Source: Promethearchaeota archaeon (GTDB lineage Archaea; Asgardarchaeota; Lokiarchaeia; Sigyniarchaeales; SOKP01). From it: 64,000 nt of DNA. A program made the position numbers and the translations under genes. The first letter of the stretch is position 1. Each line of letters opens with the position of its first letter. This document shows positions 8,541 to 36,253 of the stretch, piece by piece. Location of the stretch: NCBI GenBank assembly GCA_048937405.1, contig JBHLNF010000007.1, positions 96,001-160,000 on the forward strand. Direction: 5' to 3'. The notes beneath the pieces were generated by a model that saw nothing but the letters and a program-made list of their open reading frames with translations, was not told the origin of the DNA and searched no databases.

Positions 8541-9245
8541 TGGTAGATCACAATTAATTTGTGGGATAGACGAGGCTGGCAGAATTTAATTCACTTCGAA
8601 TTTATGTTAAAAGGCTCTGTCTTAGGCCCAATGGTTATATGTGGTGTTTGTTTTACTAAATTAAATCTTGACACCCTTTCAGAAATTGGAGTCAAAGATT
8701 CAAAAAAGTTATCTCCTCAAAAAAGAAAAAATTTAGCTGAAATTATCAAAAAGAACTGTAATTCATATAAAATAATTGAGGTAACTGCTCAAGAGATTGA
8801 CGAGAGAGAACAAAAAAAAATTTCTCTGAACCGACTTGAGGAGCTTAAAATGGCTGAAATAGTTAATAACTTAAAACCTGATGTTATTTATATAGATGCT
8901 GCTGATGTCAATGAAAAAAGATTTGGAATATCAATAAAAAAATTATTAAATTATAATCCCAAAAACATCATTTCTAAACATAGAGCAGATGATATTTATC
9001 CTATCGTTTCTGCTGGTTCAATAATAGCTAAGGATAGAAGAGATTTCCTAATTGAAGAAATACATAAAAAATATGGAAATTTTGGTTCTGGTTACCCTTC
9101 GGATCCTAGAACGATCAAATTTCTAAGAGATTATATAAAAAAGTATAAAAAAGCTCCTGGAATTGCAAGAAAAACCTGGGATACTACAAAAAAAATAATA
9201 AATGAAGAAGTATCAAATAAGAAAATAACTGAGTTTTTTAGCTAG
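8500..9245 (+). CDS. rnhB: ribonuclease HII, spliced: join(8500..8582,8612..9245); alternative start TTG at 8518
   Basis: Exon 1 gives LICGIDEAGR and exon 2 gives GSVLGPMV...VKDSKKL...IDAAD...GSGYPSDP. The frames join only if 29 nt are removed. Confidence 0.92.
8583..8611 (+). other. 29-nt BHB-type mRNA intron in rnhB
   Basis: Helix UGGC(8577-80)/GUUA(8606-09), bulges AGA and AAA, inner AAUUC/GAAUU stem; canonical cuts give GGC-AG|A-GGC. Confidence 0.85.
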
Positions 9246-19741: not shown

Positions 19742-21401
19742 ATGGAACAATCAGAGAATATAAACTTAAGTAAAGTAAAGAAAATAGCAAGGGAAATAAT
19801 TGAATATCTGTTAATAAATCCTAATACTTCCCGCAGAAAAATTACAAACCTTAAAGGACAAATTGGCAAAAAATATAATTATGATCGAGTAATAAAAAAT
19901 GCCACAATCTTGTCTCATGCAACAAATGAAGAAAAAGAGATTATCACTAAATTATTGAAGAGAAGAACAACAAGAACTATTTCAGGAGTTTCAGTAATTG
20001 CTATTATGACAAAACCTCTTCCTTGTCCTGGAACATGTATTTATTGTCCAGGTGTAAAATCCCAACCAGGAGAAAAAGTTGCCCAATCATATACAGGAAG
20101 AGAACCCGCAGCTATGAGATCAATATATAATAATTATGATCCCTACAAGCAAGTTCAATCTCGAATTAAAGATTTAGAAGCAATTGGGCATAAAGTGGAC
20201 ATGGTTTACGCTTGGTTGTATTCCACCATAAAAGATTGAACTTATTATAATGGGAGGGACATTTTTATCAATAGATTCAGAATATCAAAAACAATTCGTA
20301 AAAGGAGCATTAGAGGGAATAATAGAACAGAAAACAAATACCATAGAAGAAGCTAAGATATTAGCAGAAAAGGCTAAGCGAAGAGTTATAGGAATTACAG
20401 TTGAAACAAGACCAGACTATTGTAAAGAAACCCATATTGATAATATGTTACACTTTGGAACTACTCGAGTCGAAATTGGTATTCAAACAATTTATAATGA
20501 AATCTATGATTTGATAAAAAGAGGACATACTACTGCTGATAGCATTGAATCGATAAGACTTGCTAAAGATGCTGGGTTAAAGATCAATGCTCATATAATG
20601 CCAAATTTACCGGGTTCCAATTATTCTCTAGATTTAAAACTATTTGCCAATTTGTTCTCTATACCAGATTATCGCCCAGATATGTTAAAGATTTATCCCA
20701 CTCTGGTAATAAATGGAACTGAATTATATGATTGGTGGAAAAGTGGTAAATATATGCCCTATTCTGATAAAGAATTAATAGAACTAATTGTAAAAGCTAA
20801 AATCGATCTCCCTCCTTATGTTAGAATTCAAAGAATTATGCGAGATATCCCTGCTACCTTAATTGAAGCAGGTTGTAAGAATAGTAACTTAAGACAGTTA
20901 GTACAAGAACGATTAAAAGAAACTAATCAAATTTGTAAATGTATTAGGTGCAGAGAATATGGAATCAGTAAAAGAAAAGATATTCTCAATGAAGATTCAT
21001 TTGATGATATAAAACTATATCGTTTGGATTATGATGCCTCGCTAGGAAAAGAAATTTTCTTATCTTATGAAAATAAAAAAGAAGGTTATTTAATTGGATA
21101 TTTACGCTTAAGAAAGCCTTCTGAATTTGCTCATAGACCTGAATTGAATGATGGAAAAACAATGATTGTAAGGGAGATTAAAGTCGTTGGTGAATTAGTT
21201 CCTAAAGACATGAAACCAAATAGATATACTCAAATCCAACATAGAGGATATGGTAAACTTTTAATGGAAAATGCTGAGAAAATATCGTTTAAAGATTTCA
21301 AAATGAGTAAATTAGCTGTAATTAGTGGTCTTGGCGCAAAAGACTGGTTTTATGATTTAGGATATAAACCAGATGGTGTATATGTCTCGAAAATTCTTTA
21401 A
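19742..21401 (+). CDS. elp3: Elp3 tRNA U34 acetyltransferase (radical SAM + GNAT), spliced: join(19742..20200,20232..21401), 542 aa
   Basis: CPGTCIYCPG, QSYTGREPA, then GHKVD|KIELIIMGGTF after removing 31 nt; ETRPD, KIYPT, QHRGYG. Confidence 0.93.
20201..20231 (+). other. 31-nt BHB-type mRNA intron in elp3
   Basis: Helix GUGG(20195-98)/CCAU(20226-29), bulges ACA and AAA, inner stems UGG/CCA and UACG/UGUA. Confidence 0.87.
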
Positions 21402-31277: not shown

Positions 31278-31381
31278 CGGGCTATGAGGGAATTTCGCGC
31301 TCACCATTCTTTAAAGAGCGATTCGAACCCCCGACCTGCCGGTTAAGAGCCGGTTGCGCTACCTGCCTGCGCCAATAGCCC
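31278..31381 (-). tRNA. tRNA-Lys(CTT) with a 30-nt T-loop intron (59/60) at 31292-31321
   Basis: Acceptor GGGCUAU/AUAGCCC; loop CU-CUU-AA; BHB UUCG/CGAA with bulges AAU/AUU and inner CGCUC/GAGCG. Confidence 0.95.
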
Positions 31382-31420: not shown

Positions 31421-31522
31421 CGCAGATGGAGGGACTCGAACCCCCGAGCGCTCACGCGCACCGGCTCACTCGGTTGTGAAAAACACTCAAGGCCGGCGTC
31501 TTACCAGCTAGGCTACATCTGC
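31421..31522 (-). tRNA. tRNA-Ser(TGA) with a canonical 19-nt 37/38 intron at 31467-31485
   Basis: Acceptor GCAGAUG/CAUCUGC, long variable arm, CCGGC-CUUGAG|A-GCCGG; BHB CUUG/CGAG. Confidence 0.93.
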
Positions 31523-32278: not shown

Positions 32279-32391
32279 CGCTCAGGGTGGGATTTTCCAA
32301 AATATGCTAAATGCAACATTTTTTCGAACCCACGAATCCATTGGACACCGGTTTAGCAGACCGGCGCTCTACCAGGCTAAGCGACCTGAGC
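32279..32391 (-). tRNA. tRNA-Ser(GCT) with a 30-nt T-loop intron at about 32293-32322
   Basis: Acceptor GCUCAGG/CCUGAGC, CCGGU-CUGCUAA-ACCGG; T-loop region is 37 nt instead of 7; relaxed BHB (UUCG/GGAA). Confidence 0.93.
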
Positions 32392-32485
32392 AGGAACTTA
32401 AAAAGAAATGCTGTAATTGAATTAATTTAAATTCAATTATTTTATAAATAACAATTAAAAACTTTAATAATTTTTGTTTTGATAC

Positions 32486-32677
32486 TTACTCTTTGCCTTC
32501 TTTAATATCCTTTTTAGACCAATATCCTCTCGGTGGAGTGTTAATATCCCAGATTTTGCACCATTTACATATAGTATGGTCCGAGACTTGATTTTTTTTG
32601 GCAATTTCTGTCTTCGACATCTTCCATACAAGTTCTTTAAGTTATTCCTTGTTTAATTTAAATTTTCTTTTTGAATG
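32486..32677 (-). pseudogene. remnant of an HTH module of the kind seen in mobile endonuclease-type proteins
   Basis: HSKRKFKLNKE*LKELVWKMSKTEIAKKNQVSDHTICKWCKIWDINTPPRGYWSKK; internal stop at 32642-32644. Confidence 0.55.
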
Positions 32678-32804
32678 AATTTATAATGTTTCTTACTATT
32701 CTTTAATATGTTTTGGATGATTTCATATTTTAAAAGAGAAACCAGTGAAGAAAGCGCTATTTCTAGTTAGAATAATATTTAGAAAAAATGGTAAAAATAA
32801 AAAA

Positions 32805-34319
32805 TTAGAGTTTATAAAAATCTGCCCAGACCATTCGCTCTTCCTTAAAAGGATCATCGACTAATTTTACTTCAGGTCCAAAGAACATTGTGGACCTATT
32901 TTCAATGTCATAAGGATTCCATTTGGAAATACCCTCATGGTTAGGATTACCGTTTTGAGCAAATGAAATCCAAGAGCTCATCATCTTTTCACTCAGAATA
33001 TCGGTTTCTTTACTTCTTTTTGGATAAATCAAACTTGCTTTATCGCCAAGTGTTCCAAAAACAAACTCAATTTCGAGGGCATGACACGCACCTAAAATTC
33101 CTCCCATTTCAGGTGTTTTATAAGTAAAAAGATAAGAATAGACATTAGGTTGGTGTTTAAATTGAGCTTCTGCTAATCGTATAGCAGACATTCTAAATCT
33201 GAAATCTGTTGATATTGCGTCTAAAATATCCTGAGGGTTTGTTGGTAGTTTTCCCTCCCGTGCTTTTTTATATGTCTCGATAATTTTCCGAGCCACTGCT
33301 TCATCTTGATTAAAAAGACGTATCATCCTATGGGTACTATTAAATAAGCCCTCTTCGCTAAGTATTTCCCTTGAAGGCATTAAAGCTGTATATAGTTTCG
33401 CTTCATCCTGGTTTGTACCAACAATAAGTTCCACATCGGAGGCAAATCCTTCACGAAGTGCTTCAAGGGGATGTTTTGGCAATGTTTTTTTATCGATATA
33501 AACACCGTATGGAAAATTTCTTCCTGTTGCACGAGCTTCCAACTCCATTTTCGTTTGGACTTCTACTATTTTTTGTGTTGGGACCTTTTTTAATGCTTCA
33601 ATGTTGATTTTTTTTATACCTAAAGTTGTCATAATACGTTCAGCGCCTCTGGTTCCATTTTCAGGTTTATACCATAGAGGATGAGCTGCTCCACTTTGAG
33701 AAATTACCCGATTAAATAAACCTTTTGCTGGAGGCATAGCCAATAAAGTAGAAACTGCTGCTCCACCAGCTGATTCACCAAAAATTGTCACATTGTTTGG
33801 ATCACCTCCAAAAAGCATGACATTATCTCGAACCCATTGAAGTGCGGTGATTTGATCCAATTGTCCTAAATTCGCAATTTCGTCTTGAATGAAAATATAC
33901 CCGAATATTCCAAGACGATAATTTATTGAAATGACTACAACATCACCAAATTTGACCATATTAGTTCCATTCGTAAGTGAACCACTACCAAAAGAAAATC
34001 CCCCCCCATGTATCCAAAATAGAACGGGTCGCTTCATATCATCTATTCCTGGTGTCCACACATTTAAGGTTAAACATTTTTCTTCATCTTGTGGTGGGCG
34101 TGGCTTAGGAGTAAATGGTGAATCTCTCTGAGGTACTTCAGGACCGAATTTTGTACAATCGAGAATACCACTCCAAGGCTTTTTTCGGATTGAGGGTTTG
34201 AATCTTAGTTCTCCAACAGGTGGTTCTGCATATGGAATTCCTTTGAAGATATTTATCCCATCTGCTTCATATCCTTTAATTTTGCCCTGTTTGATTTCAA
34301 TAATTATCTCTTTTTCCAT
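32805..34319 (-). CDS. type-B carboxylesterase/lipase
   Basis: FKGIPYAEPPVGELRF, WIHGGGF, FGGDPNNVTIFGESAG, GACHALE. Confidence 0.95.
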   Translation of the reverse strand: MEKEIIIEIKQGKIKGYEADGINIFKGIPYAEPPVGELRFKPSIRKKPWSGILDCTKFGPEVPQRDSPFTPKPRPPQDEEKCLTLNVWTPGIDDMKRPVLFWIHGGGFSFGSGSLTNGTNMVKFGDVVVISINYRLGIFGYIFIQDEIANLGQLDQITALQWVRDNVMLFGGDPNNVTIFGESAGGAAVSTLLAMPPAKGLFNRVISQSGAAHPLWYKPENGTRGAERIMTTLGIKKINIEALKKVPTQKIVEVQTKMELEARATGRNFPYGVYIDKKTLPKHPLEALREGFASDVELIVGTNQDEAKLYTALMPSREILSEEGLFNSTHRMIRLFNQDEAVARKIIETYKKAREGKLPTNPQDILDAISTDFRFRMSAIRLAEAQFKHQPNVYSYLFTYKTPEMGGILGACHALEIEFVFGTLGDKASLIYPKRSKETDILSEKMMSSWISFAQNGNPNHEGISKWNPYDIENRSTMFFGPEVKLVDDPFKEERMVWADFYKL

Positions 34320-34759
34320 TATTATACCATCAATTTAAATTATTTCAGTGTTATTTTTAAATATACTTATAAATAAAATTCTCTTATGAACTAAAATCTT
34401 TAGGAATTTTATCATCAATTTAATTTTTAGATCATTTAATTGCATTTTCGTTAGATTTTCTACTCTCAACAGTTGCTCCCTAAAATTAAAAAAAAAAAAT
34501 TTGTATTGCAAGTTTAAAACCAATGATAATAGTATCCTCATATAATTTGGAAAGTTATATATTTTGGGTTGAGCTCCCTGAATAAGAAAGATATTTTATA
34601 GAAAAATCGTTTTAGACTAGTAATTCGGAAAAGAAGAAAGCAAAATTTTGATGTTCCTTATTTTTACAAAGAATCATTAAAGAGATGTCATAAAAAAGCT
34701 TTTTATACAAAAATTTTAATTAAAGTCAAAATTAATCCTTATTATAAATTTATTAAATT

Positions 34760-34925
34760 GGGCCAGTGGTCTAGTGGTTATGGTTCAATTTTTTTAAAAA
34801 CTTGAATAATAGACGTCGCGCTAATTTAATAGTAAATATATTAAATCGTGACTACACCGCGAAGGTCGAGAGTTCAATTAGAAAAAAAAATTCTTTTCTT
34901 CTTGGAATCCTCTCCTGGCCCACCA
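34760..34925 (+). tRNA. tRNA-Val(TAC) with three 30-nt introns (34783-34812, 34823-34852, 34879-34908); CCA encoded
   Basis: Spliced: GGGCCAGUGGUCUAGUGGUUAUG|ACGUCGCGCU|UACACCGCGAAGGUCGAGAGUUCAAU|CCUCUCCUGGCCCACCA; each junction is a BHB. Confidence 0.93.
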
Positions 34926-34938
34926 TTTTTTTTTCATA

Positions 34939-35721: not shown

Positions 35722-35881
35722 AAGAAAACAATATAGTGCTGCTATGAATTAGAACTTAAATATACTAATGAGTTTTAAGAAAAATAGTTTTCTCAAAATC
35801 TTTTTTTCTGAAAAGATTTATATTACAAAATTTTTATCTTTCAATAAATCAAATACAGATTTTTGCGAAAGATGGAATATT

Positions 35882-36253
35882 ATGGAAGAACAAAGATTTA
35901 ATCAATTGATCAATGCCTTAAACGAATATGAAGGTGTGGAAGATGTTTTCTTATTAAATAACCAAGGTGATATAATTTTTAAATCTGGAGATTTTCCTTT
36001 AACGCCTGAGGAAGCTAAAACAATACTCAATTCATGGAAATCTAAAGAACCTTCTCTAACATTTCAGGGATATCGGTTTGCAATTTTAAAAAATGATGAT
36101 ATTCAATTAGCTGCTAAAAATATTGGTGCGGGAAAAGGAAATATTGTTGGTTCAATTACCAAAGAAGGAGATTACCTAGTAGCTCATACTAGAGATGAAG
36201 GAATGATATTATTAGAATGGTCAATTTTCATTAATAAAGTTGCATGGTCCTAA
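35882..36253 (+). CDS. profilin-like protein (123 aa, from ATG 35882)
   Basis: VFLLNNQGDIIFKSGDFPLTPEEAKTIL...SLTFQGYRFAILKNDD...GKGNIV...YLVAH follows the profilin residue pattern. Confidence 0.7.
   Translation: MEEQRFNQLINALNEYEGVEDVFLLNNQGDIIFKSGDFPLTPEEAKTILNSWKSKEPSLTFQGYRFAILKNDDIQLAAKNIGAGKGNIVGSITKEGDYLVAHTRDEGMILLEWSIFINKVAWS

Follow-up and report, generated by a model that had tools for sequence, protein, structure and literature searches.

Three 30-nt introns in a tRNA-Val(UAC) gene of a Promethearchaeota archaeon and the standard intron size of its genus

The locus described here raises two linked questions: what kind of gene is a stretch of 166 nt in which 90 nt are intronic, and why does each of its three introns measure exactly 30 nt? 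It lies at positions 34760..34925 (+) of the window, as the whole 64,000-nt stretch of DNA under analysis is called here, in a Lokiarchaeia genome (G000) of 4.47 Mb and ~29% G+C. An earlier note had read it as tRNA-Val(UAC) with introns at 23/24, 33/34 and 59/60, and its figure of 90 intronic nt out of 166 was reproduced.

The tRNA-Val(UAC) gene and its BHB motifs

The gene comprises tRNA positions 1-76 with an encoded CCA (34923-34925), and all its parts lie on the + strand. Exon 1 (34760..34782; positions 1-23, 23 nt) is separated by intron 1 (34783..34812, 30 nt), inserted at 23/24 in the D stem, from exon 2 (34813..34822; positions 24-33, 10 nt). Intron 2 (34823..34852, 30 nt), at 33/34 just 5′ of U34, is followed by exon 3 (34853..34878; positions 34-59, 26 nt), which contains the anticodon UAC (34853-34855), while intron 3 (34879..34908, 30 nt), at 59/60 in the T loop, precedes exon 4 (34909..34925; positions 60-76, 17 nt). 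The run of nine T residues at 34926..34934 (+) is probably a terminator. An A/T motif upstream (34706..34721, +), probably a promoter element, is common to the relatives in which the Val gene is detached from tRNA-Ser(GCU), namely L004, L008, L035, L037, L044, L048 and L146.

Identity is given by the spliced product, a 76-mer of 59% G+C which ARAGORN calls as tRNA-Val(tac) with encoded CCA and which forms a cloverleaf with the invariant bases, the anticodon UAC and A73. The G+C-rich exons contrast with A+T-rich inserts, each intron having only 17-20% G+C. In its unspliced form the gene is missed both by ARAGORN, which reports 0 tRNAs in the window, and by Rfam, which reports only a Ser gene, so the warning that ordinary tRNA finders may miss it was well founded. 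The exons are colinear and each occurs once in the assembly, making this the sole copy genome-wide, which excludes a split or permuted tRNA.

Each intron is bounded by a clean BHB, as the earlier note had described. The central helices GUUA/UAAU, CGCG/CGUG and UUCA/UGGA have 4/4 pairs each and two 3-nt bulges, with the cut predicted after the second base; their 5′ strands (34777-34780, 34817-34820 and 34873-34876) pair with 34807-34810, 34847-34850 and 34903-34906, respectively. The intron helices of BHB1, BHB2 and BHB3 comprise 5, 6 and 4 pairs and the exon helices 3, 2 and 5 pairs. When the introns are shuffled in place, the combination of 4/4 central pairs with 4 or more pairs in the intron helix arises with P = 0.002, 0.0001 and 0.00015. 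A motif-free check of the boundaries comes from relatives in which the Val(UAC) locus, beside the same DUF2110 gene, has 0, 1, 2 or 3 introns. Orthologues with 0, 1 or 2 introns give an identical or near-identical mature sequence, that of the intron-free ones being identical or 1 nt different. Together with the spliced product, the orthologues with 0-3 introns fix the three sites and the length of 30 nt apiece.

The same three introns recur in L004, L005, L037, L044 and L146, with compensatory changes. Homologues of intron 1 comprise 11 distinct sequences with 80/81 hairpin cells paired, and those of intron 2 comprise 13 distinct sequences with 84/90 cells paired and 4 double changes. At the 59/60 site, 15 distinct sequences, all 30 nt long, fall into two dissimilar groups, the main one with 97/99 cells paired. 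Double changes are found in two of the three orthologous Val intron families. The chance that the locus is a pseudogene or an assembly artefact is negligible: the genome is a draft with 5.7% contamination, but this sole Val(UAC) has intact exons, its three introns recur with compensatory changes in the five relatives named above, and independent assemblies contradict an artefact. In every feature that can be tested on sequence, the gene is an archaeal BHB multi-intron tRNA gene. The best explanation, and for the whole account a probable one, is a functional single-copy gene whose precursor would contain three independent BHB introns.

A BHB-aware census of the genome, incomplete in that it has no full Ala(UGC), Pro(CGG), Arg(CCG) or Sec, for example, found 43 tRNA loci, 37 of them with introns and 21 with at least two. 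Because the parser demands a relaxed BHB, the resulting list of introns depends on the motif, and 11 doubtful parses were excluded; by eye, two doubtful parses resemble Leu(CAA) (C29:13746) and Tyr(GUA) (C18:217945). The question whether this is the only Val(UAC) gene can be answered in the affirmative for these 43 loci. GUA makes up 38% of the valine codons, and by standard wobble rules Val(GAC) and Val(CAC) should not read it; as the only valine tRNA able to read GUA here, Val(UAC) is expected to be essential. A candidate second Val(GAC) on C18 proved to be Trp(CCA). The ARAGORN default run also missed three further genes on the − strand of the window: Lys(CUU), with a 30-nt 59/60 intron (31278-31381), Ser(UGA), with a 19-nt 37/38 intron (31421-31522), and Ser(GCU), with a 30-nt 59/60 intron (32279-32391).

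Several other tRNA genes of the genome deserve mention in their own right. A tRNA-Ile with the anticodon UAU (C7:233103-233283, −) has counterparts in three other genomes of the order (L072, L084, L097); the TiaS_FLD domain was not found in G000, where AUA may be decoded without agmatidine. The same C7 gene and the one at C25:48567-48773 (+) contain inserts of 53 and 59 nt, respectively, maybe nested or adjacent pairs of ~30-nt introns. Lys(UUU) (C25:45856-45959, −) has a ~30-nt insert near 44/45 without a clear BHB, the homologue of which in G006 parses as a 30-nt BHB intron. In the 81-nt tRNA-Cys(GCA) (C26:162647-162727, −) the variable arm is long and the T loop unusual, and the Cys tRNAs of G006 and G033 are class I.

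Splicing machinery and order of excision

Two EndA paralogues are encoded in the genome. The alpha paralogue (L001) has Y138, H146 and K177, and its loop G-x-P-L-G-x-x-K-P-R (K55-P56-R57) aligns with the CSL of Aeropyrum, an (alpha-beta)2 enzyme; the beta paralogue (L002) is without the His. RtcB is also encoded (E 1.8e-169). According to published work, the CSL/L1 loop enables the enzyme to cleave non-canonical introns and is conserved among Asgard archaea (PMC5829648; PMC12397907). The subunit stoichiometry of the EndA encoded here would likewise be (alpha-beta)2. By established archaeal biochemistry, such an enzyme with its CSL/L1 loop would cut both bulges of each motif, and RtcB would join the exons.

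The earlier note had further pointed out that the BHBs compete with the D and anticodon stems and had suggested that splicing may be ordered. The competition holds, both stems being displaced by the motifs, while an obligate order is not supported. Such an order, in which the removal of one intron would be needed to form the next BHB and would serve as a folding checkpoint, is improbable, even though BHB1 and BHB2 share G26/U27 in their exon-side helices and are separated by an exon of only 10 nt, so that two enzymes may not fit together. BHB1 is moreover disfavoured in naked RNA: predicted folding of the full precursor gives central-helix probabilities of 0.03 for BHB1, 0.96 for BHB2 and 0.93 for BHB3. 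These values nevertheless stay at 0.03, 0.96-0.99 and 0.92-0.93 whichever other introns are removed; the central helix of each BHB uses only its own upstream exon, and no motif is created by the removal of another intron. Introns also occur singly or in pairs, in relatives with 23/24 alone, 59/60 alone, 33/34 with 59/60, or 23/24 with 33/34. The low probability of BHB1 is due to the end of intron 1, which mimics the D stem, a mimicry that is not kept in all orthologues. Splicing would need no fixed order, and the D-arm intron may be the slowest or the last to be spliced, as a kinetic bias.

A standard size of ~30 nt for non-canonical introns

The exact length of 30 nt had been taken as a feature of this gene. 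The lengths themselves are right, but they are not special to the gene and belong to a size class found throughout the genome and the genus. Among 49 cleanly parsed non-canonical tRNA introns in the genome, the median is 30 nt, 41 fall within 28-33 nt and 15 measure exactly 30 nt; the 7 canonical 37/38 introns range from 17 to 30 nt. Three equal lengths would arise with a probability of ~0.03 per gene, and ~8 genes have at least three introns; the three exact 30s are a mildly unusual draw from a narrow distribution. Non-canonical introns of 16, 22, 23 and 35-37 nt coexist in the same genome. In the genus-mate G006, 8 of the 14 introns are exactly 30 nt long, while other families of the order peak more loosely, in small samples, near 25-32 nt. 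In the genome and the genus, non-canonical introns have a standard size of ~30 nt, at more than 20 tRNA positions and in mostly unrelated sequences.

These introns also share a layout, made of 1 nt, a ~9-bp hairpin with a ~5-nt loop, 4 nt and 2 nt (1+9+5+9+4+2 = 30), in which the last 4 nt before the 2 bulge nt pair with the exon just upstream. When the 30-mers are read in this fixed register, 110 of 135 cells are paired, versus 57 ± 5 in the shuffled null. Although they contain homopolymer runs, orthologous Val introns have changed in length only ~4 times, versus ~121 substitutions. The three Val introns are mutually 0.20-0.33 identical, and unrelated introns at other Val sites in relatives (22/23, 53/54, 58/59 and the second, dissimilar 59/60 group) are all 30-32 nt long. 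Copying of introns between tRNA genes was not detected, the best cross-tRNA identity among 51 introns being 0.70, with shuffled maxima of 0.61-0.72.

The size class extends from tRNA to mRNA, given two BHB-shaped inserts in protein genes of the window, each with 4/4 central pairs. In the RNase HII gene, an insert of 29 nt (8583-8611, +) lies inside the DEAGR-GS motif, and its removal restores a 237-aa frame through this conserved motif. In the Elp3 gene, removal of a 31-nt insert (20201-20231, +) joins two ORFs into a 542-aa frame through conserved motifs.

The size would arise from the birth or the retention of introns rather than from an absolute limit of the enzyme; a strict length limit is unlikely because non-canonical introns of 16 to 37 nt exist in the genome. 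That the length is set at birth is conceivable, with a confidence slightly below an even chance. Somewhat less probable is a processing ruler acting after insertion, whereby EndA/RtcB would favour a 9-bp intron stem on non-canonical BHBs and other lengths would be purged. A ruler of this kind fits the orthologous introns, which keep length and hairpin in spite of homopolymer runs, as well as the 37/38 introns, which vary more (17-30 nt) and can use the anticodon stem as second helix. It fits less well with the presence of 16-, 22-, 23- and 35-37-nt non-canonical introns in the same genome, with the other families of the order, which in small samples are also near 25-32 nt, more loosely, and with an Asgard census in which intron burden was not clearly linked to EndA features (bioRxiv 10.64898/2026.10.13.758758). 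It is very improbable that a Cas1-Cas2-like integrase captured fragments of fixed length, or that the introns were kept as 30-nt guide RNAs. Their length is spacer-like and their sequences are unrelated at many sites, yet they are self-complementary hairpins, unlike random captures, no target-site duplication flanks the inserts, and no donor match above chance was found in the genome; Cas1 was found in 1 of the 41 genus genomes searched and not in G000.

Comparison with known systems places the gene among the multi-intron tRNAs of Asgard archaea. The earlier note had named Thermoproteales as the best-known source of such genes; the fitting comparator is not Thermoproteales only but Asgard archaea, from which multi-intron tRNAs have been published (PMC11291895; bioRxiv 10.64898/2026.10.13.758758). 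In three complete Asgard genomes, introns occur in over half of the tRNA genes (Valentin-Alvarado 2024, PMC11291895), and the Asgard census of Goswami et al. gives a mean of 2.2 and up to five introns per gene, with a median length of 22-23 nt (bioRxiv 10.64898/2026.10.13.758758). Val(UAC) has in common with these genes several non-canonical BHB introns, sites in the D arm and the T arm, and the fact that annotators miss them; two EndA paralogues, repeated gains and almost no copying between tRNA genes are also shared (PMC11291895; bioRxiv 10.64898/2026.10.13.758758). The published focal families are Freyr-, Jord- and Atabeyarchaeaceae, and ‘Loki’ and ‘Promethe’ are absent from the main text of the preprint; no standard size is reported there, in contrast to the tight 30-nt mode found here.

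In Thermoproteales, too, a tRNA may contain as many as three BHB introns in non-canonical positions, and EndA is an (alpha-beta)2 enzyme with CSL (review PMC4090602), and archaeal intron-length medians are mostly 12-25 nt (PMC4090602). Near-identical introns recur there across the tRNAs of one genome by transposition, whereas the best identity here, 0.70, stays within the shuffled range (PMC4090602 for the former). Transposing introns of the Thermoproteales type were rejected on this test, no near-identical introns being shared between tRNA genes here. The 31-nt non-canonical T-loop intron of Lokiarchaeum tRNA-Sec (Mariotti 2016, PMC4989117) belongs to the same class and fits the ~30-nt size, but it is a single intron and was not recognised as a member of a size class. 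In the literature searched, with most subscription journals outside its reach, no paper was found that deals with introns of fixed size, with the splicing of Promethearchaeum tRNAs, or with a standard intron size or interspecies allele exchange in Asgard.

Intron states in relatives and the neighbourhood of the gene

Mapped on a neighbour-gene tree of 35 rows, the 23/24, 33/34 and 59/60 introns must have changed state at least 6, 7 and 10 times, respectively, counts that do not tell whether introns were gained or lost. AU tests reject the grouping of the 23/24 carriers in one clade (p-AU 1e-5) as well as the monophyly of a 74-nt intron-free Val allele, which is scattered over the tree (p-AU 1e-49). 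The groups for these AU tests were named after the first tree had been seen, one marker gene was used, and all genomes are metagenome assemblies.

Exon substitutions move together with the introns. L039, with introns at 33/34 and 59/60, differs from the intron-free L012 at 11 positions of the mature tRNA, while their neighbour genes are 97% identical; its mature tRNA is identical to that of L003, L006 and L034, with which neighbour-gene identity is only 79%. Both genes flanking the L039 locus are nearest the L038/L012 group. In L035, the 23/24 and 33/34 introns stand beside one at 58/59 that elsewhere turned up in the L022/L156/L198 group, as would be expected from a crossover in exon 3. In that case, the 29/30 identity between the 58/59 introns of L022 and L035 was not retained as proof, by itself, of recent transfer, given the slow change of introns and a non-significant tree test of L022+L035 (AU p 0.087); because these introns evolve slowly, high identity alone cannot date a transfer. 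The 23/24 and 33/34 introns are old, since homologues occur in the distant L047-L050 group, with 58% neighbour-protein identity.

Those distant homologues would suit a purely vertical history, with a three-intron ancestor, many precise losses and no transfer between species, but such a history is unlikely. Exon substitutions travel with the intron state, as the 11 differences between 97%-identical neighbours illustrate, and the 74-nt intron-free allele is itself non-monophyletic. Precise loss via cDNA would moreover leave the exons of the host unchanged, and a search of this genome for RVT_1 found none. The patchy distribution of intron states and of whole tRNA alleles on the neighbour-gene tree points to allele swapping between related species. 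By such homologous recombination, with the conserved exons as crossover sites, the three-intron state would have been assembled and would still be reshuffled.

The surroundings of the gene vary as well. The usual arrangement among relatives is Ser(GCU) followed, about 5-15 nt later, by Val(UAC); here and in the majority of 23/24 carriers the two are apart, with variable cargo between them, and Val(UAC) has an upstream motif of its own. Within 32279-34759 of the window, Ser(GCU) has the opposite orientation to that in most relatives, and a carboxylesterase gene separates it from Val(UAC); the cargo differs by species (carboxylesterase, small GTPase or other). The interval thus resembles a hot spot of exchange anchored at tRNA genes; the flanks examined showed no integrase. 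In L004, Ser(GCU) is directly followed by a duplicated 22-nt 5′ fragment of tRNA-Val (~221-242, +); the full gene lies 1.3 kb further downstream, beyond a small-GTPase-like ORF. This arrangement resembles tRNA-Thr(GGU) of Caldiarchaeum subterraneum, where a single locus exists as one- and two-intron alleles, 1.8 kb downstream of a 5′ tRNA fragment (Sugahara 2012, PMC3293823), a heterogeneity explained by integration and recombination (PMC3293823). The Caldiarchaeum case concerns one population and a recombinase gene in the insert (PMC3293823); here many species and other cargo are involved. A viral carrier of the Val 5′ exon was sought without an exact match in IMG/VR, and most hits of a metagenome scan belonged to an intron-free Val gene of another lineage that has the same 5′ exon, with a few informative alleles besides. 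Downstream of Val(UAC), a profilin-like gene (window 35768-36253, +) lies just upstream of a proteasome-exosome operon; together with named relatives such as Promethearchaeota Loki_b32, these genes identify the host as an Asgard archaeon of the Loki type.

A broader scenario can be put forward as a tentative and rather doubtful proposal. A standard mini-intron module (1 nt, 9-bp hairpin, 5-nt loop, 4 nt and 2 nt) in the genus would come from an undescribed length-setting process that populates tRNAs and mRNAs; the introns would then spread and stack by interspecies recombination through conserved exons, Val(UAC) being a record of this stacking. The Goswami et al. census leaves the route of intron arrival open and contains no test of interspecies allele exchange (bioRxiv 10.64898/2026.10.13.758758).

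By itself, the Val(UAC) gene adds a further case to the known multi-intron tRNA genes of Asgard archaea, and it illustrates well a standard-size variant that is still unpublished; a tRNA essential here is overlooked by standard tools. One size and one layout in unrelated introns at more than 20 positions constitute a constraint on the birth or retention of archaeal introns, and how introns are born or kept is a question left open by the 2026 Asgard census. Sister species with differing intron combinations and travelling exon changes offer a concrete test of interspecies allele recombination, a possible route of intron gain and loss, and the Val(UAC) variants provide a ready set of natural substrates for Asgard EndA.
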